A DNA stretch of 64,000 nucleotides from Eledone cirrhosa (taxonomy: Eukaryota), in contig OZ024740.1 of the NCBI GenBank assembly GCA_964016885.1, positions 255,440,001 to 255,504,000 on the forward strand. The letters run 5' to 3'. Position 1 is the first letter of the stretch. Each line of letters begins with the position of its first letter. Below the pieces are notes generated by a model. The model was not told the DNA's origin. It saw nothing but the letters and a program-made list of their open reading frames with translations, and did not search any database. A program made the position numbers and the translations under genes. Below, piece after piece: positions 22,486 through 58,412 of this stretch.

Positions 22486-22673
22486 TATTATTTCTACTTT
22501 AGCCACAAGGCCAGCAAATACCCAGTACATTACTGGTACTTTATTTTATCGACCCCGTAAGGATGAAAGGCAAAGTCAACCTCGGCGGGATTTGAACTCA
22601 GACTGTAAAGGGACGTAACTATGCTAGAAAGCATGGCGTCCAACCCTCTACCGATACTGCCAATTCACCGCCC
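22486..22673 (-). mobile_element. Full-length tRNA-derived SINE, about 190 bp
   Basis: On the minus strand: A-box-like TGGCAGTATCGG (22662-22651), B-box-like GAGTTCAAATCCC (22599-22587), and a core GCCTTTCATCCTTACGGGGTCGATAAAATAAAGTACCAG resembling conserved metazoan SINE core domains. Both flanks are ATT repeats, and three further partial copies occur in the window. Confidence 0.85.
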
Positions 22674-22722
<49 letters not shown>

Positions 22723-22723
<1 letters not shown>

Positions 22724-25700
22724 GGGAAGAAGACGCACGAGGTGACGGAGGTCATGAAATCGCTCCCGTAAGTTTTGAATTTTTAACATATTTAAATCAT
22801 TTGTGAAATAACAACTCTTAGTACAAATGCTACGTAAAGCACCCGGCTTGAGCCCCAAAAAATTCGGACCCAAAATATATTGTTATAAGGCTCAAATATT
22901 CAAATATTCAACTTTGTATTGTACACTGTATATCCAAAAAAAAAAAATGGCTATAAATGGAAGAAGAAGAACCCCCCCCCCCCCCTCCTCTCCTCTGGCT
23001 ACACTATATAGGACAGCTAAACTCACCAACACCAGAAACTAGATACACCACCCACCCCATCATCTGTGTACACTAAACACAACAGCATTTTCACCTTCAC
23101 CGCCACCGCTCACTACGGCCATCATTACCACCACTATCCCATCACCGCCGCCACCACCCCTTGACTCCTTCACTGCTGCTGCCACCGCTACAGCACCATC
23201 ACTACAGTAATACGGTCGCATCACCGCCACCACTGCCTCGGTATCGACATCACCACCACCACTGTCTCAGTATCGCCAACGCCACCAGTCTCCCACTTCT
23301 CCCTGCTGGCTGCCACTTCCACATTATAGAATTCCTACTACTAACAAAGAGGAAGGCATCAAAATATATAGATAGACTCAAAAGAAAAAAGAAAAAACAA
23401 ACAACAAAACCAAAGCAGCACAGCAACAACAGCAAAAAACGAGAAAAACAAACAGAGAAAAACAAAAACAAAAAAAGAAACCCCAAAAACGTAAAGAAAA
23501 TAAGAATGAAGAGAGAAGCAGGCGGACGGACAGAGAAGAGGGGGGAAAAAGTAAAACTTAAAAAACAAAAACTAAGTCAGACATTCGAATACTACATTAC
23601 AATGAAACTTATGCTTATTCATTTTTGGGGCCCTTTCTGCCCGTGTGTTTGTTTGTTTATGTGTGTTCGTATACAGCGTGGTGATAATGCCACACAAGGG
23701 CCAAGTGGGATGGCGGATCCACAGATGGCTATGTAAACATACATTCGCCAATCCTCGATAAGAGTGTTTAAATATCGAACATAAACAGTTCGAATAACGG
23801 TGAAATGGAGACTAGAACGTCATGTGACAGACTCTCACCCAACAGGTGCCCCCTGGCTCAGCAGCAGGAACCTGACTGTCAACCAAATACTGCTGATGTT
23901 GGAGGAAGAAGAAGAAGGAAAGGGGCCAGAACCAACTGGACGAAAGAATTGAATAGAACTGTTATGCAATGCTACCTGAAAAGTAACCCCAAGGAGAGGG
24001 GCTACAGGAGACGGATGCATAACATCTGGAACGAGATTGGTTTATTTAAATTAGATGAACAAAAATTGGCCGGGCAGGCTCGGGTAATAAGAACTAATGG
24101 GTGGATAAGCGAGCTGGAACTGGAGGAACTGAGCAGAGAGAATGGCTTGGAGATGGCGGGTGTAGTATGCCAGACAAGCGAGCCGGCGGGAAATGAAGGT
24201 GAGGAGGTCCTGAGAACGGAGGAACCACCCGAAGCAGACAATGATCTGAATACTGAGATACATAATACCTGGAACAGAGATACGGCCACTGAGGAGATGA
24301 ATGCTGACGGGCTAGGACAAGATTCGGTTGACATCCTAAATTTAGTGGTAGATGAGTTGAACAATGATAGTGGGAGACCTATGAACCTAAGATTTGTAGA
24401 AAGGAAAAAGTTAAAAGAAACAACAGCTAAGGTAAACAAAGTCATCCCATACCTTGAGGCGAGGAGTCTTCACCAGTGCAACAATATCCTCAAAGCAACA
24501 GCAAATACGGTGAGGAAACTACTTGGTATAAAAGCGAGAGGAAACAACAGACAAGAAAGAGCAGAGCCGTGGTGGAAGAAGCGACTGAGTGGGCAAATCG
24601 GGGAAATGAGAAATGACATAGGAAAGCTTGAGTCACTACTGAATGGGACACTAAAAAACATAGGCACTAAAAATAGACTGGAAATAAAATACAAAACTAG
24701 GAGTAAAAAGCTAAATATTATCATAGAGGAATTGAAGCAACGCATTGTAGCAAAGAGTGCCAAAATCAGGCGATACGAGAACAGAGTCAGTCAGTATAAA
24801 CAGAACCGCATGTTCGACAACAACCAGAAGATGCTGTTTGGACAGCTTGAGGGGAAAGAAAGAGGCAACGACTTGATCCCTGGGGCGGAACAAGCTAAAA
24901 CATTCTGGAGAGGAATATGGGAGCAGGATGTTAGACACAATGCCCAGGCAGGGTGGATTGAGACAGTACAGAGGGAGATCGGTGAGCAGGCACAACAACA
25001 GACTGATTTGAGTATCACAGTTGAAACTCTTAAGGGGCAAGCCAAAAAACTAACCAACTGGAAATCACCAGGCCCAGATGGTGTGCAGGGGTATTGGATT
25101 AAACATTTAACATCCCTCCACCCGAAGCTGACGGCCATGTTCAATGACTGCTTGGTGTCGGGTGAGGTGCCAGAGTGGTTGACAAAAGGTACCACAGTTC
25201 TGATAATGAAAGACCGAATCAAGGGTAATGATGTTACCAACTATAGACCTATCACATGTCTGCCCGTAATGTGGAAACTGTTGACGAGCATTGTGTCTGA
25301 GGAAATCTGCCATCACCTCCACACAAACAACTTGTTACCGGACGAACAGAAAGGATGCCGAAAGAAGTCACGTGGTACAAAGGACCAGTTGCTTATTGAT
25401 AAGATGGTAATGAGGAATTGCAGGAGGAGACACACTGATCTTGCCATGGGATGGATAGACTACAGAAAGGCATTTGACATGGTGCCTCATTCCTGGATCA
25501 CCAAAAGCCTGGAGATCTTCAGGGTGGCGGATAACATCAGACAGTTGCTGGGCAGGAGTATGGGGTCCTGGGAGACAGAGTTGACATCAACTGGAGTATC
25601 CTTGGGAAGCGTGAAGATCAAGAGAGGTATCTTCCAGGGAGATAGCCTGTCCCCTCTGTTGTTTGTCCTTGCCCTGATGCCCTTGACCATTATGCTGCGA

Positions 25701-27283
25701 AAAGTGAGAGCAGGATACAAGTTGGGAAGGGGAGAGCTTACCATCAATCACCTCCTCTTCATGGACGATCTTAAGCTCTTCGGGAAAAGTGAGAAGGAGT
25801 TGGATGTGCTTGTTGACACTGTCCGTATTTTCAACAGTGATATATGTATGCAGTTTGGTATTGGTAAATGTGGAGTCATTGTGATGAAGAGGGGTAGGTT
25901 GAGCAGAAGTAACGGGATCCAGATACCAACAGGTGAGATGATAAAGGAAATTGACTCTGAGGAAGGATACAAGTATTTGGGCGTTCTGGAGGCTGATGGC
26001 ATAAAGAACAAAAAAATGAAGGAATTGTTAAGAACTGAATACATTCGGAGAGTAAGGAGCGTATTGAAGTCACATCTGAACAGCAGAAATGCCATAAGCG
26101 CAGTAAATTCCCGAGCTGTGTCTATTATTAGGTACAGTGCGGGAATTCTGAGATGGAATGTTGCTGAAGAAAAAGAAATGGATAGGAAGACTAGGAAGCT
26201 ATTGACTATCTACAACATGTTCCACAAGAGGAGTGATGTCGATAGACTCTACCTAAGGAGATCTGAGGGTGGAAGAGGTCTTATCAGCATAGAGGACTGT
26301 GTTCAGATGGAGAAAAACAACCTATACAAATACGTGACCTATAGTAAGGAGCCAATGCTCAGAACTGTACTGAAGGAGGGGACAGTAGGCCAGGGGATGT
26401 CCAAGGAGGAAATAACATCAAGGAGGAAGAGCAGCCTTAAGGGAAAATCCCTTCATAGTACCTTCTTTGAGAAAACTGAATTTAGAGATCCACAGACATG
26501 GAACTGGTTGAGAAGAGGAAACCTCAAAAAGGCTACAGAAGGAATGCTAATGGCTGCGCAGGAGCAGGCCCTCAAAACGAAGTGGTTGAAGCACCATATC
26601 TACAAGGAGGAGGCTAGCCCACTGTGCAGGATCTGTGGAGAGAGAGAGGAGACTGTGGCTCACATTGTGTCCGAGTGTAAACACCTAGCCCAGACCCACT
26701 ATAAGGGCTGGAGACACGATGTGATGGGCAGGGTGATCCACTGGCACCTGTGCAAAGTAAACAATCTACCACATTCTGAGAAATGGTATGAGCATAGGCC
26801 AGAGGCGGTGATGGAGAACAGTCAGGTGAAGGTGCTGTGGGATTTTAGGATACAGACGGACAAAAAACTGGAACACAATAGACCTGACCTGGTGGTTGTG
26901 GACAAAGAAAAAAGATCGTGCCTGATTGTGGATGTGGCCTGCCCGTTCGACACGAGAGTGCAAGAGAAGGAGAGGGAGAAAATTAACCGATACCAGGACC
27001 TAAAGTGGGAGGTGAAAAGGATTTGGAACTGCCATGAAGTCAAAGTGATCCCGATTGACATAGGCGCACTGGGGACTATCTCCAAAGGTTTCCAGGGATG
27101 GTTAAAGAAAATCGGCCCCTTCACGCTTTTTGGAACGCTTAAAAAGGCATGCTTGCTTGGAACGGCAAAAACCCTCCGATACGTCCTGAATATCTGAGGC
27201 TGCAGGTAGTGGCTTGATATTCAATCCAACGGACTTTCCAGTTAACCAACATCAATGACTGAGATTCAAGGAATAACAATAAC

Positions 27284-27316
<33 letters not shown>
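22723..27316 (+). mobile_element. Apparently full-length R4/Dong-like RLE non-LTR retrotransposon
   Basis: Bounded by (TAA)n at 22674-22722 and a (TAA)n tail at about 27272-27316, with a single RT-RLE ORF. The approximately 1.08-kb leader is assumed to be 5'UTR. Confidence 0.8.
23805..27197 (+). CDS. Non-LTR retrotransposon polyprotein: reverse transcriptase, CCHC zinc finger and restriction-like endonuclease (R4/Dong clade)
   Basis: Intact 1130-aa ORF with RT motifs KSPGPDG, YRPITCL, DYRKAFD, GIFQGDSLSPLLF and FMDD, followed by CRIC..ETVAHIVSEC, RHD, RPD..D and EK..Y..L. Confidence 0.93.
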   Translation: METRTSCDRLSPNRCPLAQQQEPDCQPNTADVGGRRRRKGARTNWTKELNRTVMQCYLKSNPKERGYRRRMHNIWNEIGLFKLDEQKLAGQARVIRTNGWISELELEELSRENGLEMAGVVCQTSEPAGNEGEEVLRTEEPPEADNDLNTEIHNTWNRDTATEEMNADGLGQDSVDILNLVVDELNNDSGRPMNLRFVERKKLKETTAKVNKVIPYLEARSLHQCNNILKATANTVRKLLGIKARGNNRQERAEPWWKKRLSGQIGEMRNDIGKLESLLNGTLKNIGTKNRLEIKYKTRSKKLNIIIEELKQRIVAKSAKIRRYENRVSQYKQNRMFDNNQKMLFGQLEGKERGNDLIPGAEQAKTFWRGIWEQDVRHNAQAGWIETVQREIGEQAQQQTDLSITVETLKGQAKKLTNWKSPGPDGVQGYWIKHLTSLHPKLTAMFNDCLVSGEVPEWLTKGTTVLIMKDRIKGNDVTNYRPITCLPVMWKLLTSIVSEEICHHLHTNNLLPDEQKGCRKKSRGTKDQLLIDKMVMRNCRRRHTDLAMGWIDYRKAFDMVPHSWITKSLEIFRVADNIRQLLGRSMGSWETELTSTGVSLGSVKIKRGIFQGDSLSPLLFVLALMPLTIMLRKVRAGYKLGRGELTINHLLFMDDLKLFGKSEKELDVLVDTVRIFNSDICMQFGIGKCGVIVMKRGRLSRSNGIQIPTGEMIKEIDSEEGYKYLGVLEADGIKNKKMKELLRTEYIRRVRSVLKSHLNSRNAISAVNSRAVSIIRYSAGILRWNVAEEKEMDRKTRKLLTIYNMFHKRSDVDRLYLRRSEGGRGLISIEDCVQMEKNNLYKYVTYSKEPMLRTVLKEGTVGQGMSKEEITSRRKSSLKGKSLHSTFFEKTEFRDPQTWNWLRRGNLKKATEGMLMAAQEQALKTKWLKHHIYKEEASPLCRICGEREETVAHIVSECKHLAQTHYKGWRHDVMGRVIHWHLCKVNNLPHSEKWYEHRPEAVMENSQVKVLWDFRIQTDKKLEHNRPDLVVVDKEKRSCLIVDVACPFDTRVQEKEREKINRYQDLKWEVKRIWNCHEVKVIPIDIGALGTISKGFQGWLKKIGPFTLFGTLKKACLLGTAKTLRYVLNI

Positions 27317-27317
<1 letters not shown>

Positions 27318-27428
27318 GTTGTTGTTGTTGTTGTTGTTGTTCTTCTTCTTCTTCTTCTTCTTCTTCTTCTTCTTTTTCTTCTTCTTCTTCTTCTTCTTCT
27401 TCTTCTTCTTCTTCTTCTTCTTCTTCTT

Positions 27429-27456
<28 letters not shown>
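27272..27456. repeat. Compound microsatellite (AAT)n-(GTT)n-(CTT)n
   Basis: Visible directly in the sequence. Confidence 0.95.
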
Positions 27457-27459
<3 letters not shown>

Positions 27460-27667
27460 AAAGAGATCGTATGGTGGACGCGTCTGAAAGGGTTGAAGAC
27501 GGCTACTTTCCTCTTCGGTGATACCCTCATTAACTTTTTCAGGTTTCACCTGAAAAGCAAAATCAGAGTGAAGAGGGATGTGCTGTCTTCCAGCTAGTTT
27601 GTTGAAAGGTGGGTAAGAGAGGCAAGAATGGCCCGTGTGAATGGGCCTACACTGAGCGTGTGCATCG
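27457..27667 (+). mobile_element. Fragment of the Tx1-family ORF2 C-terminus
   Basis: KEIVWWTRLKGLKTATFLFGDTLINFFRFHLK matches the ORF2 end of the other copies. Confidence 0.88.
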
Positions 27668-28712: not shown

Positions 28713-28734
28713 ATTATTATTATTATTATTTAAT

Positions 28735-28820
28735 TTTGCCTTTCATCATTACGGGTCGATAAAATAAAGTACCAGTAATGTACCGATTAATTGCTGGCCT
28801 TGTGCCAAAAAGCAGAAACA
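28735..28820 (+). mobile_element. 5'-truncated SINE copy
   Basis: tttgcctttcatc...gggtcgataaaataaagtaccag...ggccttgtgccaaaaagcagaaaca, with (TTA)n on both sides. Confidence 0.85.
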
Positions 28821-28868
<48 letters not shown>

Positions 28869-28869
<1 letters not shown>

Positions 28870-31455
28870 GCGAACTACGTAGGAAATCGAATTATCGTTA
28901 GCTCCGCAAAGGTTTGTTGTTTTCAGTTGTTTCAAATTGCCAGTTATGAAACATTTTTGTTGTTAAGTGCTTATAAGTTCACATATATTGCTTTCTGAAA
29001 AGGACACAAAAAGATATTAGAGCCTTGAGCCCAAAATTTACACTTTTATAATTATAAAACAAAAACTTTCTTTGAAAAAAACATGGACGACTCTCAGCCA
29101 CACAAAGCTGACAGACTTCCCAACAAACTAACACCTCACATCAACACCACCATTATAAATATTACTACATTTGCCAACACTAAAAATATAAGCAGTGGCA
29201 ATAATTTAAATTTGTCTCAGGCAGACATTCATTTCCCGCCATTACCAATAACTGCAGGTGTTAAAGCCGCCGACACCACAGCGACAACAGAAACAAAAAA
29301 AAAATTATTATCTCGTGTCATCGAAATGGATTCACCCAGAATCGACTCTTCCACGCCGAACACCACTGACACCACCACCACCACCACCACCACCACCACC
29401 ACCACAACTGAAACTAAAAATAACAATAACAACAACAGCAACAATAATGAGAATAACAACAACAGCATCAACACCACCGCAAAACAAAATGTGTCGTTTG
29501 TCAAAGCAGCCAAGAAAACCGAAACAATCGAGGTAAGCCAGGATGAATTAAATGAAGCCAAGAGAATGGTAAAAAATATGGGTACAGGGTCCCCCCTCCC
29601 ATCTAATAAAATGGAGCATCGGCGCCTATGCACCGTGTCATATCGGACGATAAACACAAAATCACGCCGAGTGGAACGGGCATCCGAGTCCCAGATACAA
29701 AAAGCTTTGGGGCATGTGTAGGCGAAAAAACCACACATCAGACGTGAGCAGAAATATGGAACCGTGGACGTGTTCTTTGGAACACCACAGGAAACCAGAG
29801 AGCACTCCATTACCCCATTAAGAAGTTCACACTCGTCCCAAGCTATTGTGGTCAGAAACTCGTGAAGATCAGGGTGACGCACGTTCCACCGGCCATCAAA
29901 ATACCCTGGCTAATGGCTGCCGTCCTCGCCGATATCGAGGCCAACACGAAAATAATTGAGGTAACAAAAGAAAAGCAGGCGAACTGGTCGGGATCTGGGA
30001 TGGAGCTCCTGATCCAAGCAGACCTAAAAAACATTGAGGAGATCCCAGCGGTAATAGACCTCAATGACGGCAGCCACCTCACCGTAATCATTAAGGGTAG
30101 AAGGCCTAGGTGTGTCGTTTGTGGCGAAGGAACTCACCTAAAGGCTTTCTGCCCTCAGGCTAAAAAGTTGAGGCCATCTCTCCTACCCACCCCAGTGACT
30201 CAACCATCAAAACCACCAGCAGCAGAAATGGCAGCAACAACTGTAGCAGCAACAACCCCAGCAACAGTAGCAAAACCAACCTCACCACCACCACCACGCG
30301 CGCCAGAATTAGCACCAGCGCCTCCACCATCCACCACACCACAACCAAAACCAACGCCTGTGGAGGATTTTCCACTCCCCGACCTATCCCAACTGGAGAC
30401 AGATTGTGACGACGAGGAGGAGTGGGAAATGGTATCTGGAAAAAAGAAAAAAAAAAGAACCCAAGGAAGAAAAAATCCTCTTCCTTCGCCATCCAAAAAC
30501 AAAATGCAGGGGGAAACAAATAAGCAAACAAACAAAAAAGTTAAGACAGCTATGCCACCACCCACACCAGCTTCAACAGCCCCATCACCACAAACACCAA
30601 CACCATCACCATCATTAACCCCAACACCACAAAAATAACCAAAAAGCGAAACAGAAACAAACCAACAACAAACGCAAACAAAACAAAACAACCAAAACGA
30701 TACACACTACACAGCATTAAATTTGAACGACAACCAATTATTACACTACATCCAACACAACACCAGCATCACCGAAAAAGGCTACACAACACCCCAAAAA
30801 TTCACACGACCTCCACACATACAAATCACTCGCATCACACAGAAAACGTACACGACACTAAAACAAAAATTCCCCAAGGACATCGGAGACTTCCGACAAA
30901 CACTCTCCAGGAGGATTTATAAGGACATCCTTCCGGAGGAGGCCACAAGCAGTGAGAAGGATGGAGAAACTATCCTTCCTCTACGAGAAGTGAGGTTAGT
31001 GGTCTTTCCCATCTTTTTCCATTCCTTTTCAACATGACCTCACTCAGAATAGGCAGCATAAATGCGCGTGGCTTGGGGTCATCATGGAAGCAGGGCCACT
31101 TGCTCAACGACCTCAGGTCACTAAATATAGATATGATGCCCATCAGCGAGACCAGAATCTCCGAAGCACGAGCCTTCGCACCGATCTTCGGCGGCTACGA
31201 TGTGTACGCATCTCCCAGCCGTCCTGGATCGGGGGGAGGAGTTGCTGTGCTTTTTCGGAGAGGTTTGGATCTCGCCATACGGGCCATCTTCCTGGACCCA
31301 GAAGGTAAGTTGGTGGTGCTGGACGTGACCAGGGGAGACGGATAAGCTTTCAGGCTAGTGGCCGTCTATGCCCCGACAGGAGCAGGGCGGCCTGATTTCT
31401 TCCGGCGTTTGGAGACCTTTCTTGGAACGTCCCGCTCTTTAGTGTTAGTGGGCGA
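28869..31455 (+). mobile_element. Tx1-clade element, 5' part (5'UTR, disrupted ORF1 from 29083 to about 31000, start of ORF2 APE from 31034), truncated at the inversion breakpoint
   Basis: The 5' end is homologous to the copies at 47850 and 58204. It has the knuckle CVVCGEGTHLKAFC and ORF2 start MTSLRIGSINARGL. Homology stops at 31455. Confidence 0.9.
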
Positions 31456-31992
31456 TGTGGTTATTGTTATTTTTGTTATTATTATTTTTTTTTCTATCAG
31501 TTGTTGCTGTGATGGTGGTGTCGTCAGTGGCGTTTGACGTAACATGTACTCTTCCACATTGGCAAAGGTGGAAAGTCTATGTCCGCCCGTGGAAAACTTT
31601 GGTGACTGCTATTGATGGTACTGCTGCTGCTATTAGCGAAAACGTTATCGGCTTTAGCAATTGTAAGAATGTTCAAAATGGTGGTGGTGGTGGTGGTGGT
31701 GGTGGGAGTAGTGTCTATGTTAGAGTTGCTGTCACGTGACAGCTGGCCTAATTTGGGGAGGGATATACCGTCCATGTTTTTTCTTAAAAAAAAAAAATTG
31801 TTTGTTTGACAAAATAAAGTTTAAATTTAGGGCTGAAGGCCCCAATATTATTGAGTGTCTTTTTCAGAAAACAATATATATGAATTTATAAGCAGTTAAC
31901 AACAAAAGTTTTGCATAACTAGCAATTCAAAACAACTGAAAACAACAAACATTTAGGAGCACATGATAAAACGTTTACCTACGTAAATCGCC
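31456..31992 (-). mobile_element. 5'UTR and ORF1 N-terminus of a Tx1-clade element (subfamily B), displaced by inversion
   Basis: The reverse complement starts ggcgatttacgtagg after (ATT)n. ORF 31524-31775 contains ADIDFPPLP, compared with ADIHFPPLP in the other ORF1s. Confidence 0.85.
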
Positions 31993-32016
31993 AATAATAA
32001 TAATGATAATAATAAT

Positions 32017-32093
32017 TGTTTCTACTTTTGGCACAAGGCCAGCAATTATCCCAGTGCATTACTGGTACTTTATTTTATCGACCCTATAAGGAT
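32017..32093 (-). mobile_element. 5'-truncated SINE copy
   Basis: Matches 22490-22564 and is flanked by AAT repeats on both sides. Confidence 0.85.
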
Positions 32094-32101
32094 CGATAAT
32101 G

Positions 32102-32165
<64 letters not shown>

Positions 32166-32425
32166 TTTCTTTATTAACCACAAGGGTTTACATAAAGTAG
32201 ACATTAAGGACAGTGCAGGACAATGCAGGACGGTACAAATGGGCATTTCTGCGTGTAAAAAAACAAAAACAGAGGATGTAACAAAAATAACAATGAAAAT
32301 AACAATGAAAAATTCCCCAATAGGGGGGAGACTTCGGAGGGACATTTGTGGAGAAAGCCCAGTAAAAAGCCACAATGACCCTGACCACCAAGGCAAGTGC
32401 CCTCTCCCAGTTTTCCACCTTTAGT

Positions 32426-35400
32426 TTACAGATATATACTCAGAGTCGGCCCATTCACTCGGGCCATTCTTGCTTCTCTCACCCATCTTTCAACAAAATG
32501 CTGGGAAGAGAGCACTTCCTTCTCTACTCTGATTTTCCTTTTCAAATGAAATTTGAAAAAGTCAATCAGAGCATCACCGAAGAGGTAAGTGCTCGTCTTC
32601 AGCCCTTTCAAACGTGTCCACCATACTATCTCTTTCGCCATGGCCACCAGACAGATAAAAACTGCCTGCCCTTCCCGGCTAAAGGAAGAGGGCGGGGCAA
32701 TCCTCACGATAGACTCAGATGATAGCTGGATCCGTCCTAAACGCGACAGCAGGTGTTCGACATAAACCCACAAGTCAGCAATTTTCGGACACTGGACGAG
32801 TGCGTGCAGGACGGTTTCGTCGCCCTGCGCGCATCTCGGACATGCCCGGCTGACGGCACCTCCATGCCTGTAGAGTTTATCCCGAACTGGCAAGGCTCCT
32901 CGGTAGCACTGCCAGGCCAGAGATTTCTGGAAGTTGTCCATAGGCCCTGGCCCGAAAGTTCTTCCGAAGAGATTGGCTAGTTGATTTTCGTCGACGCCTA
33001 GAGTTTCCCCAAGTACGTCGTCGCTCTTCCCCTCCACTAATCCTCTATAGAACGCCGAGGTGGAGTTTCCACCGATCACATTGCCCGATTGGTCGAGGGC
33101 TGTGAGCGCCTGAAGACATTCCAGTCTCCAGGCGCTCCCTCTCGGTCTTCGCTTGACCCAGGACTGCAGCTCCGTCAAGGAAACGAGCTGGGGAAAAACG
33201 CGTCTAGCAAACGGCGACCACACCTGATCACCGTCGAGGAAGAGGTGGAGATGTCGTAGCCTGAGCGCGTGCCTGCGCATCATCAGCCACGGCATGCCCA
33301 GCCCTCCACGTAGCGGGTGTTGACAACAGATGGACCGCCTGACCATCGGAGCACGTCCCTTCCACAAAAAGCGAAAGAGCAAACGCTCCAGCGCAGTCAG
33401 GCGAGGCTTAGGACAAGGTACGACGGTTAGGCGGTAGCAGATGACAGACGCGATGTACGCGTTAGCCACCTCCGCTCGACCTTTCAGGGATAGCTTCCTC
33501 TCCGCCCATTTCTGGGTGAGAGAAGCCACCCTGCTCGTCACCTCGTCCCAGTTTTTGTCCGTCTGGAGGTCCGGACCGAACCAGACCCCTAGCAATTTAA
33601 CCGGTCCGTCCGTCCAGCGCCCGACGACGCTGTTGGACGGCATGGACCTGCCTCTCCAGGTGCCGAGCTGCAGGCCCACTGACTTTTCCTGGTTGATCAT
33701 TGCTCCTGTCACCGCTTCGTATTCTCTTAGTGTAGTGCCGATCGCCTCGATGTGTTTGGCGTTCGACACCACTACGGTGACATCGTCCGCATATGCTGAC
33801 ACGGATCTTCCGCATCCTAGTTCGCGCGGGACTCCCCTCAACGTCTCCAGTTTGTGCAGTAATGGCTCGAGAGTCAATACGTACAAGAGGGACGAGAGGG
33901 GACATCCTTGGCGGACCGAGCGCATGATGTTGAACGGTTCCGACAGGTGACCGTTCACTCTCACCACAGAGCAGATGTCGCTGTGCATGGCAGCGATCCA
34001 GCCTCTGAAGACGGGCCCAAAGCCAGCCGCCCTCAGGACTGCCGCTAGGTAACGATGGTCGACCCTATCGAAAGCTTTCGACTGATCTAAATTGATCAAG
34101 GACCCACCCGTGCCAGGTTCCCTAGCTACCCTCTCTACGATGTATCGCATGAGGTGGAGGTTGTCGTGGATGGATCTGTCGGGAATGGCGCATGTCTGCG
34201 CCTCTCCCACCAGACCACCAACGACAAGCGCCAACCTCTTTGCTAGCACCTTGGCCAAAATCTTAAACTCTGTGTTTAGCAGAGTTATGGGCCGGAAATT
34301 GTCTATGTTATCCCCCTTGTTCGGATCCTTTCTCAGCAGTGCCACCGCTCCTCGGCTCACAGAACTGGGAATTCTCCCGTTCTGTTGCCAGTTGCAGTAG
34401 ACGTCCGCCAAGAGGCCTCCGAACAAGTCTGGCATCTGTACGTAAAGTTCATAGGGCAGACCATCCAAACCAGGCGATTTACCCCTTGTGCAGCCAGTCA
34501 TTGCCTCCCGTACTTCAGCGGCTGTTATCGGCTTTTCGCAACACTTCGCCTCAGTGGCCGAGAGCCGCGGCAGTCCGTCGAGGTAGACACTAAAGTCCAT
34601 CCCTCTACCCGGCCCCCCGCTTCCCCCGAACAGCTGAGCGAAGTGTCGCTGAAAAGCTTCACACATTTGCCCGGGATCGAGTAGCATGCGCCCGTCGTGG
34701 TCCACCAAAGACCGGATCGTGGCTTTGTTGCCACGACGCGCCTCCGCCACTCGGGCCCATTGAACGGCTTTCGTCCCCTCGTGTCTGAGAGCACGCACCC
34801 TAGCTCTGACAACGCAGCCTTCGTGCTTTGCATTGAAGAATTGGTCAAGGGCCAATTTCGCCGCAAGCACGTCGGTCGCAATGCCTTTGCTAAGCGCCTC
34901 GTCTAATTTTCTAACTAGTTCTCCCTCTGCTCTATTTTTCTCTATTGCTAAAGCCTTACTAAACCTAATCGATTCTATTCTAATCGCTCTTTTCAGAGCA
35001 AACCACCACTTGTTGTTGACGATGGCCCCCGTCAACGCCCGCTTAACTAGTTCGCTAATCCGGTCTCTGTAGGCCTTGCGCGCTGGTAAGGACGCGTTTA
35101 GCTTCCAGTAGCCGGGTCCTCGTCTATGAAGCCTATCTAAGTCAAGCACACAGATCACGAATTTGTGGTCCGTGTAGCTGACTATCTTGAATTGTGGACA
35201 GCCTATGCTAGACCTATCTATTTCCCTACAAAATACTCTATCTAGATATGATCTGGATGACCCTATGCGGTTTGTCCAAGTCCACATTGGCACATTCGGG
35301 AAATCCAATCGGTACCTGTCAGACAGTTCAAAACGCCTGAGCAGGTTGGTGAGGCTCTTGCACCCTCCACCCCTATCCGCTAATCCCACACAGTCCCAGC

Positions 35401-35845
35401 GTGCATCTAAGATCCCGTTCCAGTCGCCCACTAACACTAAAGAGCGGGACGTTCCAAGAAAGGTCTCCAGACGCCGGAAGAAATCAGGCCGCCCTGCTCC
35501 TGTCGGGGCATAGACGGCCACTAGCCTGAAAGCTTGCCCGTCTCCGCTGGTCACGTCCAGCACCACCAGCTTACCCTCTGGGTCCAGGAAGATGGCCCGT
35601 ATGGCGAGATCCAAACCTCTCCGAAAAAGCACAGCAACTCCTCCACCCGATCCAGGACGGCTGGGAGATGCGTACACATCGTAGCCGCCGAAGATCGGTG
35701 CGAAGGCCCGTGCTTCGGAGATTCTGGTCTCGCTGATGGCCACTACATCTATGTTTAGTGACCTGAGGTCGTTGAGCAGGTGACCCTGCTTCCATGACGA
35801 CCCCAAGCCACGCGCATTTATGCTGCCTATTCTGAGTGAGGTCAT
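32426..35845 (-). CDS. ORF2: APE endonuclease, reverse transcriptase and C-terminal CCHC zinc finger (Tx1 clade)
   Basis: 1139 aa. APE motifs SINARGL, ISET, GGGVA, VYAP, GDWN, SYLDR, TDH, WKLN; RT motifs KSPGLDG, FRPITLLN, DQSKAFD, RQGCPLS, YADD; zinc finger CPRC..ETVLHALVQC. Confidence 0.95.
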   Translation of the reverse strand: MTSLRIGSINARGLGSSWKQGHLLNDLRSLNIDVVAISETRISEARAFAPIFGGYDVYASPSRPGSGGGVAVLFRRGLDLAIRAIFLDPEGKLVVLDVTSGDGQAFRLVAVYAPTGAGRPDFFRRLETFLGTSRSLVLVGDWNGILDARWDCVGLADRGGGCKSLTNLLRRFELSDRYRLDFPNVPMWTWTNRIGSSRSYLDRVFCREIDRSSIGCPQFKIVSYTDHKFVICVLDLDRLHRRGPGYWKLNASLPARKAYRDRISELVKRALTGAIVNNKWWFALKRAIRIESIRFSKALAIEKNRAEGELVRKLDEALSKGIATDVLAAKLALDQFFNAKHEGCVVRARVRALRHEGTKAVQWARVAEARRGNKATIRSLVDHDGRMLLDPGQMCEAFQRHFAQLFGGSGGPGRGMDFSVYLDGLPRLSATEAKCCEKPITAAEVREAMTGCTRGKSPGLDGLPYELYVQMPDLFGGLLADVYCNWQQNGRIPSSVSRGAVALLRKDPNKGDNIDNFRPITLLNTEFKILAKVLAKRLALVVGGLVGEAQTCAIPDRSIHDNLHLMRYIVERVAREPGTGGSLINLDQSKAFDRVDHRYLAAVLRAAGFGPVFRGWIAAMHSDICSVVRVNGHLSEPFNIMRSVRQGCPLSSLLYVLTLEPLLHKLETLRGVPRELGCGRSVSAYADDVTVVVSNAKHIEAIGTTLREYEAVTGAMINQEKSVGLQLGTWRGRSMPSNSVVGRWTDGPVKLLGVWFGPDLQTDKNWDEVTSRVASLTQKWAERKLSLKGRAEVANAYIASVICYRLTVVPCPKPRLTALERLLFRFLWKGRAPMVRRSICCQHPLRGGLGMPWLMMRRHALRLRHLHLFLDGDQVWSPFARRVFPQLVSLTELQSWVKRRPRGSAWRLECLQALTALDQSGNVIGGNSTSAFYRGLVEGKSDDVLGETLGVDENQLANLFGRTFGPGPMDNFQKSLAWQCYRGALPVRDKLYRHGGAVSRACPRCAQGDETVLHALVQCPKIADLWVYVEHLLSRLGRIQLSSESIVRIAPPSSFSREGQAVFICLVAMAKEIVWWTRLKGLKTSTYLFGDALIDFFKFHLKRKIRVEKEVLSSQHFVERWVREARMARVNGPTLSIYL

Positions 35846-35879
35846 GTTTAAATAGAGTGGAAAAGATGGGAAAGACCAC

Positions 35880-37973
35880 TTACCGTACTTTTGGTAGAGG
35901 AGGGATGGTTTTTACATCCCTTTTCACTTGATCGTCGGGTGAAGGGACCGTTGAATCGTTCCTTCGGCTGGTCGTCGGCTCTTCTAAGAGAATGTCTGAA
36001 TATACTCTTCGATTGATGGTTCCTCCTAGGTCCCTGAAATCACCAACTGTGTTGGGGAATTTCGTTTTAATGTTTGTGTATTGTTTCTGTGCTATTTTTA
36101 GCAGTCTTATGTTAGTTGGCGTTTTGATTGGTGCTGGTATTATGTAGTCCTGTTGTGAAATGTCTGTGTGTTCAATTATGTAAGTCATTAGTTTCTTGTT
36201 GTGTGTGTTTATTGCCGTGCATTTGTTTTTCTGGGGGTGGGGTGTGGTTCTGCTATTTTCTTGTCGTTGTTGCTGGGTGTGTGTGTTTTGTTGTTGTGTT
36301 TGCGATGTTGGTGCTTGTGGTGGTGGTGTTGAAGGTGTTGTTGGCGGTGGGGTTGTCGCCGGTGGTGATGGTGGTGCTGGTGTGGGTGGTGATGGTGTTG
36401 GTGGTGTTGCTGCTGTGGGTCTCTTTGCAGTAGACTTTACCCTTTTCTCATTTCTTTCCTCCCTTTTCAAAGGCGACGATGCGCTGCTTCTGCGTTTGTG
36501 CCTTCTTGCGACCTTTTGCCATCCCTCTCCCACCTCACACTCCATGTCTGATTCTGTAAGGTCGGGGAGGGGTACCAGCTCCACTCTTTCACTTGTTGTT
36601 GTTGGTGATGTTTGCACTGGAGTCTCTGTTGCAGCTGCATTTGGTATTGCTGTTGTTGTTGTTAATATTTCCACTGCTGCTGCTGTCTTTGATTTCCGTG
36701 GAGTGGGTATGGGTGCCACGGACCTATCGTTCCTGGTTGCCGCTTGTCCTGTTGCTGGTAGCCGTGGAGCCGGATTCGGAAGGAGGGGGGTTTTCTCCTT
36801 TCTCAGGGTCTTCTTGTTGCAGAAGGCCCTGAGGTGAGTCTTCGATCCACAGCGAAAGCATTTCGGGCGTTTGCCCTCAACACTTATGGGCAGTTGAGTG
36901 CCGTTATCGAAGTCTATCACATCCGGGATAGCTTCGATGCACTCCTGGTTGGTTTGGATTAGCATCTCAATGGAGGAGCCGACCCAATCTTCTCTTACTT
37001 TTTTCTGTACTTGCAGTACAGTTGTTTTGTCCTCGATTCCGACGAGGACAGACGCGGCCAGCCAAGAAGGGGTCATTCCGGGGGGGACGTGGGTCAGTTT
37101 GACCCTCACAATTTTTTGCCCGCAGTAGGAGGGCACCAACACCATTTCCTCGCTCCTTAGGGTCACTACTGATTGGGCCTTTGCCTCCTGGGGTGTGGCA
37201 AAAAGTACGTCTACGGTGGCGTATTTTTTGCCTCGGGTGATGTGCGTTTTCCTCTGCCACACAGACCCCAAGGCTTTTTGTATTTGGGCCTCTGTGGCTC
37301 TTTCCACCCTACGGGATTTTGTACTTACTGTACGGTACGTGACCGTACAGTGCTCTTGGGTTTCGAAAAAATTTTTCGCTGCCTTGCAGATTGCTCGGTG
37401 TCCGTTCTTTGTCACCATCTTCTTCGCTTCCTCTAATTCCTCATTTGTTATGAGGATTGTTTCCAAGTTTTTCGCAATACCTGCAAATGAGATTGGTTTT
37501 TCTCTGCTGTTGTTGTTGTCGTCAGAGCTGCTGGTACTTTTGTTGCTGCAGGTACTACGACTACTGCCTCCGCCGCTGTTGCTGTGGTTGTTGTTGGTGT
37601 TGCTGCTGCTAATGCTGTTGTTGTTTATGCTGCTGGTGATGCTGTTGCGGCTGCTACTGTTGTTTTCATTGTCACTGTTGCTGTTGTTATTACGGCTGCT
37701 ACTGCTATTATTCCTGACGTCAGACGAATGAACTGGGTTTTCGTATTTCCTGCACACCTGTTTCGTCGCTGTCGTCGTCGTCGTGGAGAAACCTTGCACG
37801 CTTTGCACGAGACTTTTCTTTTCTTTCGTCGCTTGCGAAAGAGAAGGGAGGGAGAGAGACACATTTAAAGAAGGGAGGGAGAGAGACAATCTTCTCTCTG
37901 CTGTAGTGATGATTGAGGAAGAAGAAGACGGAATGAGTGGGAGTGACGTATGAAATTTCTTTTTGGTAGCCAT
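35880..37973 (-). CDS. ORF1: gag-like nucleic-acid-binding protein with a zinc knuckle and low-complexity N/S-rich and P/T-rich tracts
   Basis: Open frame 35880-38006, with the first ATG at 37973. Contains the knuckle CFRCGSKTHLRAFC (C-X2-C-X4-H-X4-C) and lies immediately upstream of ORF2. Confidence 0.88.
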   Translation of the reverse strand: MATKKKFHTSLPLIPSSSSSIITTAERRLSLSLPSLNVSLSLPSLSQATKEKKSLVQSVQGFSTTTTTATKQVCRKYENPVHSSDVRNNSSSSRNNNSNSDNENNSSSRNSITSSINNNSISSSNTNNNHSNSGGGSSRSTCSNKSTSSSDDNNNSREKPISFAGIAKNLETILITNEELEEAKKMVTKNGHRAICKAAKNFFETQEHCTVTYRTVSTKSRRVERATEAQIQKALGSVWQRKTHITRGKKYATVDVLFATPQEAKAQSVVTLRSEEMVLVPSYCGQKIVRVKLTHVPPGMTPSWLAASVLVGIEDKTTVLQVQKKVREDWVGSSIEMLIQTNQECIEAIPDVIDFDNGTQLPISVEGKRPKCFRCGSKTHLRAFCNKKTLRKEKTPLLPNPAPRLPATGQAATRNDRSVAPIPTPRKSKTAAAVEILTTTTAIPNAAATETPVQTSPTTTSERVELVPLPDLTESDMECEVGEGWQKVARRHKRRSSASSPLKREERNEKRVKSTAKRPTAATPPTPSPPTPAPPSPPATTPPPTTPSTPPPQAPTSQTQQQNTHTQQQRQENSRTTPHPQKNKCTAINTHNKKLMTYIIEHTDISQQDYIIPAPIKTPTNIRLLKIAQKQYTNIKTKFPNTVGDFRDLGGTINRRVYSDILLEEPTTSRRNDSTVPSPDDQVKRDVKTIPPLPKVR

Positions 37974-38210
37974 GTTTTTTTGTTTAAAATGAAATTTTGG
38001 GTACAAAACCCCAATAACTGGTTATTTAACCCCGAAGGGCCAAATAACGGACAGAAAGACCCCTCTCACGAGGAGGAGGGTGTCTTTATCAACAATTTGG
38101 TTCAAGTTTTAAACAATTTACAATTGTTTTAACGGTTAAAAATTACTATACCTTACAGAGCCGAGCCTCCGTCAACCATGGCATTCAATAATAATAATAA
38201 TAATAATAAT

Positions 38211-38470
38211 AGGATTTGGAACTGCCATGAAGTCAAAGTGATCCCGATTGTCATAGGCGCACTGGGGACTATCTCCAAAGGTTTCCAGGGATGGTTAAAG
38301 AAAATCGGCCCCTTCACGCTTTTTGGAACGCTTCAAAAGGCATGCTTGCTTGGAACGGCAAGAACCCTCCGATACGTCCTGAATATCTGAGGCTGCAGGT
38401 AGTGGCTTGATATTCAATCCAACGGACTTTCCAGTTAACCAACATCAATGACTGAGATTCAAGGAATAAC

Positions 38471-38502
<32 letters not shown>
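38211..38502 (+). mobile_element. Short 5'-truncated copy of the R4/Dong element at 23805, including its tail
   Basis: Near-identical to about 27018-27300, with (TAA)n on both sides. Confidence 0.93.
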
Positions 38503-38504
<2 letters not shown>

Positions 38505-40649
38505 TCAGTCCTAACTGAATACACATATGACCACCTGATAACAAATGACCTATTTCCCATTGAGCAGAAAGGGTGTAAACGAGGCTCATATGGCTGTAAG
38601 GATCAGCTTCTGGTTAACAAAATGATACTGGAAGATTGTCATAATAGACACAAAAATCTATCGATTGCTTGGATAGATTATAAAAGAGCATTCGATAGTT
38701 TGCCACACAGCTGGATTGAAAAATGTTTAGAGATTTTCAAAATATCCCCCGTTGTCAGGAGGTTTTTGTCATTCAGTATGAAGACATGGAAAACGACACT
38801 CCTTTTGAATAGTGAAACAAAATCACTGGAAGCTGGAGAAGTTAATATTAATTGTGGAATTTTTCAGGGTGACTCTTTATCACCGCTTTTATTCTGCATC
38901 GCACTTATACCATTAAGTAAAATGCTCAATGAAACAAAACATGGATATAAAGTCTATGACAAAACCATTAATCACCTGTTCTACATGGATGACCTGAAAC
39001 TATTTGCAAAAAATGATGAACAATTGCAAGGGCTATTATCCACTGTGGAGCAGTTCAGTGATGAGATTAAAATGGAGTTTGGACAAGATAAATGCGCCAA
39101 AGCAACGTTCACCAGAGGAAAGCTGCTGAAGAGTTCAGACATTAATCTTGATCGGGGGAACGTGATAAGAGAACTTGATCAAGAAAAAACTTACAAATAT
39201 CTAGGTGTTTGTGAAGGAGACGGAATCAAGCACTCGACAATGAGGGAAAGGATAAGGAAGGAATGTTACCGCAGAGTAAGAGCAATCTTAAGAACGGAAT
39301 TGAATGCAAGGAATAGGACCGATGCCATAAATACGCTTGCCATACCAGTAGTAACCTACAGTTACAATGTCATCAACTGGTCAAGCACAGAGATCCGTAG
39401 GCTCGATACAAAAATTCGAAAATTCTTAACCATTCACAAAATGCATCACCCTAAGGCAGATACAGATAGAATATATCTCCCCAGGAAAGAAGGAGGACGT
39501 GGGTTAATCCAGTTAGACATTGCTTTGAAAACTGCAACAATTGGATTATCTACATATCTAAGGGAATCACATGATTGGATGATCAAACTCGTTTTGAAAC
39601 ACGAAAGCATCAAAAGATCATACTCCATTACAAAAGATGCACAAAGATACAGTAATGGACTATACATTTCAGAAGTCCCATTTACTGCTGAAATGGAAAA
39701 CACAGAAAAAGCAAAGCAGGTAACTGCAAAGAAAGAACTGCTACAGAAACTGGCTAAGAAATGGCAAGAAAAGCCTCTGTATGGAAAATATCCAGAACGA
39801 GCTAACAATCCTGGACTGAAATCGGAGACTGAAGGACTGATTTGTCTGCCAACAAAAAATTACCAAGCCAACATAATAAAAAATGATGCAGCCAATTTAT
39901 GCCGTGTATGCAAAAAACAACCAGAGACCATTGACCATATAATTTCAATGTGCAGTCCTATAGCTCCAACCGAATACCTAAACAGACATGACAGAGCTGC
40001 ACAATACATACATTGGATAATGTGTAAGCATTTTGACCTGCCCCATCAAAAGAATTGGTGGGAGCATCAACCACCTCCCATACTTGAAAAAGATCATATC
40101 TCAATCTTGTGGAACTTTAGCATCCAAACAGACCGAAAAATAGATGTAAATAGACCTGATATAATATTGAAGGACTTTAAAAAGAGGGTATGCCTGCTGA
40201 TTGATATGTCTGTTCCAATAGACAAGAATGTATCTATAAAAACATTTGAAAAATTTCGCAAGTATAAGGATCTGGAGATAGAAATTGGAAAAATGTTGAA
40301 ATTGAGAACTAAAACAATACCAGTGGTTGTAGTCGCTCTAGGAATGATACCTAAGGGGTCCAATGATTACTTATCGCAAATCCCAGGAAACCCGCGTATA
40401 GTAGAAATACAAAAGATAGTACTAATGGGAACTGCCCATATACTAAGGAAGATTCTGTCAATATAAGTACATCACAAGTCTAAACACTAAAGATGCATGT
40501 GTGAGTATGTATGTTCTTTCTTGAACATGGCGGACCTTGTGTCTCTTGAGGTCACTGATTGTGACTTGGTGATAACTCGTATGAACATAAAGCAAGATAA
40601 ATGCAGCTGTTATAATAATAATAATAATAATAATAGTAATAATAATAAT
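38503..40649 (+). mobile_element. 5'-truncated R4/Dong-like element of a second family (RT-RLE frame open to 40466) with a (TAA)n tail
   Basis: EQKG, DYKRAFD, GIFQGDSLSPLLF, YMDD, CRVC..HIISMC, RHD and RPD..D motifs. The ORF-track start at 38448 is read-through of the upstream tail. Confidence 0.9.
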
Positions 40650-42390
40650 GATTTCGTTATTGGCCACAAGGGCTGACATCAAGAAAAACATTACAGGCGG
40701 CACAGGACAGTACAGGACGGTACGATGTGGGTTTTGTGCGTGAAAATATTTGTATTATTCATATAAGAAAAGAAAAAAAACGACATAGAAACATATATAT
40801 ATAAACAATAAAAATGAAAATTGAAACAATGAAAAATTCCCCAATAGGGAGGAAACTTCCAAGGGTTACTCGTGGCGAAAATCACACAAAAGACCACGGC
40901 CATCCTGACCACCAGGTCAAGCGCTCTCTCTCAATATTTTTCCATCTCTCAAACTACAAGCGTATATTCAGAGCGGTCCCGTTCACTCGGACCATTCTCG
41001 CTACATTAACCCACCTTTCAACAAACTTGCTAGAAAGCAGCACTTGCCTCTCAACCCTGATTTTCCTCTTCAAGTGAAACTTGAAAAAGTTAATCAGGGA
41101 TTCACCGAAGAGGAAAGTGTGTGTTTTTAACCCTTTCAACCTTGTCCACCACACAATCTCTTTCGCCATGGCCACCAGGCAGATGAAACCGCCTGCCCTT
41201 ACTCCTTGAAGGAAGACGGCGAGACCATCTTCACAATGGACTCAGTCGATAACCGGATCAGTCCTACACGCGACAGCAACTGTTCGACATAGCTCCACAA
41301 GTCAGCATTGCTCGGGCACTGAACGAGTGCGTGCACGACGGTTTCGTCTCTGCGCGCATCTCGAACAGGTTAGGCTGACGGCACTTCCGTGCCTGTAGAG
41401 CTTATCGCGAACCGGCAGCGCTCCCCGGTAGCACTGCCAGGTCAGGGATTTCTGGAAGTTATCCATAGGCTCCGGGCTGAAAGTTCTCCGGAAGAGAGCA
41501 AGCACCTGATCTTCTTCGACGCCCAGGATCTCTCCGAGAACGTCGTCGTTCTTCCCCTCCACTAGTCCTCTATAGAACGCCGAGGTGGATATTCCACCGA
41601 TACTGGTGCCCAGCTGGCAGAGGGCAGTGAGAGCCTGGAGATATTCCAGTTTCCAAGCGCCATCCCTCGGTATTTTCCTCACCCAGGACTGCAGTTTCGC
41701 CAAGGAGACGAGCTGTGGGAAAACGTGCCTGGCGAACGGCGACCACACCCGTTTACCATCAAGGAAGCACCAGCGATGTCGCAGCCTCAGCGCATGTTTG
41801 CGCATCATCAGCCATGGTATGCCCAGTCCTCCACGCAACGGGTGTTGACAGCAGACGGATCGTCTGACCATAGGAGTGCGTCCCTTCCACAAAAAGGGGA
41901 AGAGAAGGCTCTCCATTTTAGTGAGAGATGGGCCGGGAAAGGGACGACGATGAGGCTGTAGTAGATGACGGATGCGATGTACGCATTCGCCAGCTCCGCC
42001 CGGCCTTTCAGGGACAGCTTCCTCTCGGCCCATTTCTGGGTGAGGGAGGCCACCCTGCTCGTCACCTCGCTCCAGTTTTTCTCCATCTGGGGTCCGGTTC
42101 GAACCAGACCCCGAGCAACTTAACCGGTCCGTCAGTCCAACGTCCCATGATGCTGGCGGACGGCATGGACTTGCCTCACCAGGTGCCGAGCTGCAAGCCC
42201 ACCTACTTCCTGGTTTATCTTTGCTCCTGTCATCGCTTCGTATTCCTTGAGAGCGGTGCCGAGCATCTGGACGTGTCTGGTGCTCGACACCACCAGGGTG
42301 AAGACGTCGGCGTAAGCCGACTCGGATTTCCCGCATCCTAGTTCACGTGGAACGCCCCTCATCGCCCCCAGTTTGTGCAGTAACAGCTCG
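40650..42390 (-). mobile_element. 3' part of a Tx1-clade element (subfamily B): degenerate RT C-terminus, zinc finger and 3'UTR
   Basis: Similar to 46127-47767 (LHKLGAMRG.PRELGCGKSES). Ends GCCCTTGTGGCCAATAACGAAATC followed by (ATT)n. Confidence 0.9.
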
Positions 42391-47839: not shown

Positions 47840-48057
47840 TTTTATTATTGGCGACCTACGTAGGAAATCGTATTATCGTGAGCTCCGCAAAGGTTTGTTA
47901 TTTCCGTTTGTTTAAAAATTGCCATTTATGGAAAATTTTATTGTAAACTGTTTATAAGCACACATACATTGTTTTCCGAAAAGGACACCCAAAAAGATTG
48001 GGGCCTTGTGCCCAAAATTTTAACTTTTATTATTATCCAAAATTTTCTTTGAAAAAA

Positions 48058-50027: not shown

Positions 50028-50061
50028 GTGGTCTTTCCCATCTTTTCCACTCCTTTTCAAC

Positions 50062-53482: not shown

Positions 53483-53764
53483 ATTAAAGGTGGAAAACTG
53501 GGAGAGGGCACTTGCCCTGGTGGTCAGGGCCACTGTGGTCTTTTAATGGGCTTTCTCCACAAATGTCCCTTGGAAGTCTCCCCCCTATTGGGGAATTTTT
53601 CTTTGTTATTTTATTTCAACCTCTGTTTTTTTACACGCAGAAATGCCCATTTGTACCGTCCTGTATTGTCCTGTACTGTCCTTAATGTCTACTTTATGTG
53701 AACCCTTGTGGTTAATAAAGAAAACATTATTATTATTATCATTATTATTATTATTATTATTGTA

Positions 53765-58203: not shown

Positions 58204-58412
58204 GGCGACCTACGTAGGAAATCGTATTATCGTGAGCTCCGCAAAGGTTTGTTATTTCCGTTTGTTTAAAAATTGCCATTTATGGAAAATTTTATTGTTA
58301 ACTGTTTATAAGCACACATACATTGTTTTCCGAAAAGGACACCTAAAAAGATTGGGGCCTTGTGCCCAAAATTTTAACTTTTATTATTATCAAAAAATTT
58401 CTTTGAAAAAAA

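Follow-up and report, generated by a model that had tools for sequence, protein, structure and literature searches.

A short terminal hairpin shared by an abundant octopod SINE and Tx1-type LINEs points to a probable mobilisation partnership

This study concerns a short interspersed nuclear element (SINE) and the Tx1-type long interspersed nuclear elements (LINEs) that surround it in a window of 64,000 nucleotides (nt) from Eledone cirrhosa (assembly GCA_964016885.1, contig OZ024740.1, forward-strand positions 255,440,001 to 255,504,000; the window is the whole stretch analysed, and positions are counted from its first letter) within a genome of 3.0 Gb. The SINE and its likeness to Tx1 constitute a real feature and a partnership with Tx1 is probable, while the part of the earlier interpretation that concerned microsatellites is wrong. 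A preliminary description of this DNA had proposed that a Tx1 element mobilises the SINE and that the SINE thereby inherits microsatellite targeting; the partnership stood, with Tx1 emerging as the best candidate on the basis of terminal match, co-varying hairpin, polarity, L1-type duplication length and shared sites, whereas inherited microsatellite targeting did not. The observations that underlie this assessment are a shared terminal motif, target-site duplications that start at ATTAT with a C before them, nesting of SINE and Tx1 copies in the same polarity, open Tx1 ORF2 frames (ORF, open reading frame) and the presence of young copies of both elements. On balance, we favour the explanation that this abundant tRNA-type SINE is likely mobilised by the Tx1 ORF2 protein (ORF2p) via the shared terminal hairpin; a partnership with Tx1, whether hairpin-dependent or relaxed, appears quite probable. 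The features on which the comparison rests are the following:

22489..22673, minus strand: short-form SINE, full-length, 185 bp, with an A-box-like motif at +12 and a B-box-like motif at +75
22489..22512, minus strand: 3' terminus of this SINE, consisting of a CUUGU-loop hairpin followed by GAAA-N2 and the ATT tail, with a C-to-G stem change private to this copy
28730..28820, plus strand: 5'-truncated SINE flanked by (ATT)6 and (ATT)15
32017..32093, minus strand: 5'-truncated SINE within the ATT tail of a Tx1 element
32164..38186, minus strand: Tx1-type LINE in which the ORF1 frame (35880-38021) and ORF2 (32426-35911; endonuclease, reverse transcriptase (RT) and zf-RVT) are both open, with an A-type 3' end and a different 5' untranslated region (UTR) and ORF1
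40650..42397, minus strand: 3' portion of a Tx1 subfamily B element, with the shared hairpin at its terminus (40673-40650)
47850..53725, plus strand: full-length copy of Tx1 subfamily A between ATT tracts, with a frameshifted ORF2
48002..48025, plus strand: hairpin in the 5' UTR of this Tx1-A copy, some 55 nt ahead of the ORF1 start; in the 98%-identical copy L152, the corresponding stretch and the SINE terminus agree at 18 of 24 positions

The terminal match reported at the outset, 19 of 26 positions without gaps between the SINE end (22512-22487) and the Tx1-B end (40673-40648), was recovered with both strings in place. It is real, though its last two positions are bases of the ATT tail, which leaves 17 of 24, and one further match is private to the window copy, which carries a G where 162 of 171 short-form copies have a C and thereby gains one match to Tx1-B. 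A random sample of 99 evenly spaced 10-kb stretches (990 kb) contained 78 SINE copies with a usable 3' end and both flanks. Majority SINE ends agree with Tx1-B at 16/24 positions in the short form (67 random copies) and 17/24 in the long form (14 copies), and ungapped identity to the SINE end is 14-17/24 for Tx1-A, B and D. Moreover, CCTTGTG begins 22 nt before the tail in the SINE, Tx1-A and Tx1-B alike. One terminus from each of 17 LINE families (seven Tx1-type, three CR1-type, four RTE-type and three R4-type) was then aligned, anchored at the end, to both SINE forms. All seven Tx1-type termini scored 18-27, while the ten CR1-, RTE- and R4-type termini scored at most 11; thus, the SINE tail does not match another LINE family better among these 17 termini, and Tx1 is the best. 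In a SINE-masked null of 4,613 random sites upstream of ATTAT, three sites scored at least 22 (the level of Tx1-B, C, D, F and G) and ten at least 18, none reached 16/24 without gaps, and two of the three top-scoring sites proved to be Tx1 5' UTRs.

The element held in common is a hairpin of 3-4 bp with a CUUGU loop, around which the stem pairs are swapped: the SINE stem reads GGC/GCC, that of Tx1-B and C GCC/GGC and that of Tx1-A ACC/GGT, with G-C in the SINE opposed to C-G in Tx1, and A-U in Tx1-A. In a six-row alignment both sides change in three of the four stem pairs, with a covariation of 0.50 that was equalled in none of 500 shuffles. The motif also occurs outside the 3' terminus. When a whole Tx1-A copy was scanned, the best match to the SINE end lay in the 5' UTR (18/24), ahead of the 3' end (16/24, long form), with a maximum of 17 in 40 block shuffles of the scan. 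This match ties the SINE further to Tx1, whose 5' or 3' end may have been the source of the SINE tail. Within the window, 5' UTR hairpins resembling both the SINE end and the Tx1 3' hairpin are situated at 48002-48025 (plus), about 58356 (plus) and about 37985 (minus), in each case 35-55 nt before the ORF1 start. Most other Tx1 subfamilies have a CTTGA loop at the 5' UTR hairpin, and the otherwise unrelated 5' UTR at 38186 has a similar stem at the equivalent position, in which both sides of one pair have changed.

Several points weigh against a hairpin-mediated partnership. The homology between the SINE and Tx1 extends over just ~24 nt at 58-71% identity and ends at the stem, while established SINE/LINE pairs have 50-100 nt in common (PMC3472496, PMC3747384). 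The rows in which covariation was seen are few and related, represent few independent events and include one SINE row that is atypical, and one pair is broken in Tx1-D; furthermore, the folding energy of the hairpin does not go beyond that of shuffled sequences (z from +0.5 to -1.1) and was, being non-significant, rejected as support for the hairpin. The stronger match at the Tx1-A 5' UTR than at the 3' end also belongs here. A genome-wide search for a LINE with the exact stem of the SINE followed by AATAAA returned 15 matches, of which 14 were clearly SINE and one was a short fragment, none having a LINE upstream. The LINE panel was drawn from the 990 kb of random sequence and from search loci, and rare clades may thus be missing from it. 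The target stringency of the two elements, expressed as the number of copies in long ATT tracts, is sharply different (5/114 SINE copies by the presence of at least five upstream ATT units; 39/39 full-length young Tx1-A copies by at least seven). In addition, pairing between tail and primer can alone set the first bases of a duplication (PMC6007223), and the ATTAT start described below is accordingly not diagnostic. Finally, the excess of SINEs directly after Tx1-B and C ends over those after CR1a ends (15/59 versus 1/58, p 0.0002) is confounded by age.

Some of these points would fit a second explanation, to which we assign a small probability, namely that the SINE is mobilised in a relaxed manner, via the AUU tail, by Tx1 or by a related enzyme of L1 type, the hairpin being an unneeded relic of an old capture, possibly from a Tx1 5' UTR. 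Weak folding, short homology and the better match to the 5' UTR hairpin speak for such a route, as does the crocodilian SINEU, which is thought to use Tx1-Mar without a shared tail (PMC4494074). However, the motif is kept at the 3' ends of seven Tx1 families whose UTRs have otherwise diverged, ATCT-tailed families included, and its spacing from the tail is equal in the SINE. The motif is not specific to ATT targeting, being present in families that end in ATCT repeats.

The insertion signature was assessed in the randomly sampled copies and in a set of position-picked copies. Duplications of at least 8 bp were detected in 41 of 78 random and 27 of 36 position-picked SINE copies (5 and 2 of these, respectively, being pure ATT); the non-simple duplications measure 8-20 bp, with medians of 13.5 bp (random) and 15 bp (position-picked), and start at C^ATTAT, although the rule for finding SINE ends required an ATT-like 3' junction and the ATT start is therefore partly built in. 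Two measures are independent of that rule: an upstream copy of the duplication was found by a permissive test in 47/114 SINEs (shuffled mean 1.7, maximum 5), and a C occupies position -1 of the site in 37/61 cases against a background of 16.6% (p 1e-14). The target of the SINE is the short motif C^ATTAT(T). L1-clade duplications are described as 7-18 bp long with a mode of 13-15, and those of RTE as 7-15 bp (PMC6007223, citing Ichiyanagi and Okada 2008); the L1-clade range is the better fit to the lengths observed for the SINE. Among candidate truncated Tx1 copies, 15 of 48 displayed a duplication (9-23 bp, all starting with ATT, 14 essentially pure ATT), and many junctions of the other 33 were chimeras with other Tx1 pieces. 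Three Tx1-C copies of only 28-32 bp (L208, L345 and L347) occupy non-microsatellite ATTAT sites with duplications of 12-17 bp, one of which contains a mismatch; all three lie directly 5' of a SINE, and in L347 the same duplication is also present after the SINE. The SINE and Tx1 have the same start motif, a like duplication length and three common sites, but an unlike preference for long tracts.

The SINE and Tx1 also stack upon one another. A SINE directly follows the Tx1 end in 10/30 Tx1-C, 5/29 Tx1-B and 4/37 Tx1-A copies, always in the same orientation, compared with 1/58 CR1a ends (plus one in opposite orientation) and 13/146 background ATT tracts (one counted twice); the exact Tx1-SINE junction pattern was encountered in 128 cases. 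In the reverse arrangement, the truncated SINEs at 28730-28820 and 32093-32017 are, as first described, each followed by an ATT tract and then by a Tx1 5' end (at 28869 and 31992, respectively); besides these two cases in the window, Tx1 follows a SINE end in 1/39 full-length Tx1-A copies and in several truncated copies. The suggestion that SINE tails act as landing pads consequently holds for Tx1, where it is reciprocal with the SINE; for Dong it draws on single junctions only, which may have arisen in either order, and was not supported. Co-insertion of Tx1 and SINE by template switching is not favoured: the linker was duplicated after the SINE in 14 of 20 Tx1-SINE junctions, these linkers being mostly plain ATT.

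Under the hairpin-dependent explanation, RNA polymerase III (Pol III) would transcribe the SINE, and the ORF2p of an ATT-type Tx1, most plausibly of the looser B and C subfamilies, would bind the CUUGU hairpin of the SINE RNA and, at C^ATTAT, nick the bottom strand. Pairing of the nicked strand with the short AUU end of this RNA could then prime reverse transcription, and an offset second nick would give rise to the duplication. Each insertion would regenerate the site at both of its ends, such that SINE and Tx1 copies could stack head to tail, and what the SINE inherits would be limited to the short motif for cleavage and priming, without the preference of full-length Tx1-A for long microsatellites.

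A comparably small chance, if anything slightly smaller than that of the relaxed route, is given to the possibility that the true partner is a LINE which is extinct or escaped the sampling (L2, Nimb/I, Crack and an unseen Tx1/L1 branch being examples), with a likeness to Tx1 that is convergent or indirect. The random sampling covered 990 kb only, the RT probes recovered Tx1, RTE, CR1 and R4-like families only, and bivalve SINEs are known to use CR1, CR1-Zenon, L2 and Nimb, with the caution that sibling LINEs can be mistaken for partners (PMC11481361). Conversely, the maker of the recent, near-identical SINE ends, which exceed 132,000, should itself have young copies; among the sequences that recur before (ATT)n in the first 600 kb, the SINE and Tx1 are the only element ends; and Tx1-C reuses SINE sites with like duplications.

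It is highly improbable that a site-specific Tx1 has passed ATT-microsatellite targeting on to the SINE. The idea arose from the three SINE copies with an intact 3' end (22673-22489, minus; 28730-28820, plus; 32093-32017, minus), all of which do have ATT repeats on both sides (the run 3' of the first copy being imperfect), and it gains from the frequency of SINEs at Tx1 tails. In the 114 copies examined, however, at least three upstream ATT units were present in 12 and at least five in 5, which equals the background (9.2% and 4.9% of all ATTAT positions), in contrast to the full-length young Tx1-A copies, which were preceded by at least seven units in 39 of 39 cases. Genome-wide, (ATT)5 follows at most 6% of young SINE ends (7,913 versus 132,470), and tails of at least five units were observed in 16/30 Tx1-C, 16/29 Tx1-B and 12/30 CR1a copies but in 0/30 SINEs. 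The expected ATT enrichment of SINE 5' flanks thus fails for long tracts, leaving a preference for the short ATTAT motif only, and the SINE was rejected as a microsatellite-targeted element. The copies in the window all sit in ATT tracts because the window is a Tx1/Dong nest, atypical of the SINE family as a whole.

Least probable of all is mobilisation by a young CR1-like LINE which, despite its youth (up to 99.7% identity), 2,926 exact ends, ATT tail of like polarity and its own 3' stem-loop, has a different loop, a terminal match of 3/24 (score 0-5) and no duplication signature (0/43 strict; 2/43 permissive against a shuffled mean of 0.5), for which reasons CR1a was rejected as partner. This family (L121-L150, L266-L295), with an ORF of 945 aa and an (ATT)n tail, was probably active recently. 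RTE families were rejected as partners on account of tails of (GAT)n or TAGA/AT repeats, terminal scores of at most 10 and non-simple duplications in 0/9, 0/18 and 2/13 copies, counts in which many RTEb rows are internal repeats and not true 5' ends. The termini of these families (L059, L088, L085, L066, L036 and L057) consist of (GAT)n or TAGA repeats, their usual setting is an (AT)n tract, and the RTEb 3' UTR contains a tandem duplication of ~113 bp. Dong/R4 elements were set aside for their opposite tail polarity and scores of at most 8.

The SINE itself is a short (185 bp), non-coding, interspersed and high-copy element with target-site duplications and 5' truncations, whose exact 28-nt end pattern occurs 132,470 times genome-wide, a lower bound on its copy number. 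Copies 97-100% identical to one copy demonstrate that young copies are present. An older, long form has a ~27-nt segment just upstream of the hairpin which the young, short form is without, while the last 32 nt are kept (random loci). The reference copy has its A-box-like motif at +12 and its B-box-like motif at +75, both located via a consensus relaxed at one A-box position, and contains no run of four T. The head is putatively of tRNA origin; ARAGORN detected no tRNA gene in the window, and the head had no match to the Rfam tRNA model at E-values up to 10. The body may resemble the CORE region of the octopus SINEs OR1 and OR2. A 45-bp tandem array made of the 5' part of the SINE was also seen (L030) and is a minisatellite born from the SINE head.

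The Tx1-type LINEs carry Exo_endo_phos, RVT_1 and zf-RVT domains and have the ORF1 plus ORF2 layout of the L1 group. The best solved relative of the ORF2 at 32426-35911 is human L1 ORF2p (181 bits), and a 73%-identical homolog of the Tx1-type protein is named from Argonauta. The match P0096, which bears the automatic name TX1, scored 311 bits and grouped with the window element in a clade with support of 97/98 against RTE, CR1 and R4 rows, in an RT tree that was built without curated Tx1 or L1 references; by sequence, the window LINE is likely Tx1 rather than L1 proper. Young copies are present in this group also, Tx1-A reaching ~97-99% and Tx1-C up to 99.4% identity. Of the Tx1-type families, at least four have ATT ends and three have ends of ATCT repeats, and in all of them the hairpin motif is followed by AATAAA and GAAA. 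The ATCT group (L044, L047, L297, L304, L314, L315, L316 and L327) comprises sister families that both end in and sit among (ATCT)n while keeping the same 3' hairpin, and represents a target switch within the clade. The element at 32164-38186 (minus) combines an ORF2 and 3' UTR of A type with another kind of 5' UTR and ORF1 (~65% to Tx1-A over part of their length), which suggests an exchange of the ORF1/5' module; in L152 and L177 the same 5' end is again present after tails. In L151-L189, full-length Tx1-A copies are stacked head to tail (16/39 after another Tx1 end) and are often arranged tail-to-tail with Dong/R4 across one ATT/TAA tract.

Tail sharing is the rule for many SINEs, yet only 3 of 58 surveyed pairs have L1-group tails, those being from maize and Chlamydomonas (PMC3472496, PMC3747384). 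The plant and algal pairs ZmSINE2/3 with LINE1-1_ZM and SINEX-3_CR with L1-1_CR resemble the present case, where the stem changes are putatively compensatory, in having an L1-group terminal hairpin with a conserved loop and compensatory stem changes (Ohshima 2012, PMC3472496). They differ in being from green plants and in their poly(A) tails and 50-80 nt of shared sequence (PMC3472496), in contrast to the Tx1-type animal LINE, ATT tail and only ~24 shared nt described here. The precedent involving Tx1 is the crocodilian SINEU/Tx1-Mar, in which the SINE was assigned to Tx1 by common targets, with no Repbase LINE matching the 3' half of SINEU-1 according to the available text (PMC4494074, Kojima 2015). 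As here, the Tx1-clade partner is argued from shared targets and overlapping age, with tandem stacking at the target (PMC4494074); unlike SINEU, with its snRNA heads, poly(A) tails and lack of LINE 3' similarity, the Eledone SINE has Pol III box motifs, an ATT tail and the shared 3' hairpin (PMC4494074). The proposed reading by ORF2p of the loop of a 3' stem-loop beside a short repeat tail recalls UnaL2/UnaSINE and ZfL2, stringent L2 pairs of another clade for which stem-loop recognition is experimental whereas ours is inferred (PMC4176376); L2/CR1-type elements in the Eledone genome show no long duplication. Tx1-A, being strictly tied to a microsatellite, is comparable to the Tx1 families Kibi and Koshi, which differ in targeting (TC)n and (TTC)n where the targets here are (ATT)n and, for the sister families, (ATCT)n (PMC4494074).

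Like OR1, OR2 and OK, the Eledone SINE is an octopod element with a tRNA-type head and a very high copy number. These octopus SINEs were reportedly described as tRNA-derived by Ohshima and Okada in 1994. They are named as CORE-SINEs, with no partner LINE given in the available parts of two sources (PMC4824008, PMC4758252), and the corresponding parts of two cephalopod repeat papers list L1-Tx1, Dong-R4, CR1, RTE and tRNA-CORE/Deu SINEs, again naming no SINE partner. 'Tx1' is absent from the text and supplement of a Repbase-wide SINE-LINE comparison (PMC5786205), and no octopus SINE-Tx1 pair appeared in literature listings and abstract openings, though Repbase Reports, Dfam notes, subscription papers and some supplements could hold one. 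In the literature so covered, no LINE is named as driving octopus SINEs, which account for ~11.6% of the Octopus vulgaris genome (PMC13282606). If true, the partnership would mean that stringent 3' recognition also reaches into the L1/Tx1 branch of animals, and a Tx1 partner with a shared hairpin bears on whether the relaxed, poly(A)-based recognition of mammalian L1 is derived. The 24-nt element and the open ORF2 provide material for testing Tx1 recognition, and the comparison of Tx1-A (long ATT tracts) with the SINE (short C^ATTAT) separates target choice set by the endonuclease from that set by the RNA. A broader scenario, which we advance tentatively and consider rather doubtful as a whole, is that the Tx1 elements of octopods belong to the stringent type of L1-group LINE, with an ORF2p that reads a CUUGU hairpin at both RNA ends; that the dominant octopod SINE captured this hairpin, possibly as a 5'-plus-3' fusion, and would be the first tRNA-SINE of animals to bear a recognition tail of L1/Tx1 origin; and that a site-specific enzyme may lose its long-repeat preference when acting in trans.

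From 22.4 kb onward the window is occupied by Tx1-type and Dong/R4-like LINEs and SINE copies nested around ATT/TAA tracts. In addition to the elements listed above, the following were mapped:

22674..22723, minus strand: (ATT)16 tract 5' of the full-length SINE, abutting the apparent 5' end of a plus-strand Dong/R4-like LINE
23772..27272, plus strand: Dong/R4-like LINE with an RT ORF of 1141 aa from stop to stop, a (TAA)n tail and a polarity opposite to that of the SINE and Tx1
28869..31455, plus strand: 5' part of a Tx1-type LINE, directly after the tail of the SINE at 28730..28820
31772..31992, minus strand: Tx1-type 5' UTR, directly after the tail of the SINE at 32093-32017
38500..40611, plus strand: 3' part of a second Dong/R4-like LINE, tail-to-tail with Tx1-B across an ATT/TAA tract
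58204..64000, plus strand: second Tx1-A copy, which runs off the window

The Dong/R4 clade label of the LINE at 23772..27272 is a presumptive one, based on its RT grouping and tail. A piece of a more distant Tx1-type family (53940-54482, minus; ~70% to Tx1-A) lies tail-to-tail with the Tx1-A copy, and positions 1-13517 of the window consist of a 41-bp satellite of ~330 copies with 94% matches, which is open in all three plus-strand frames.

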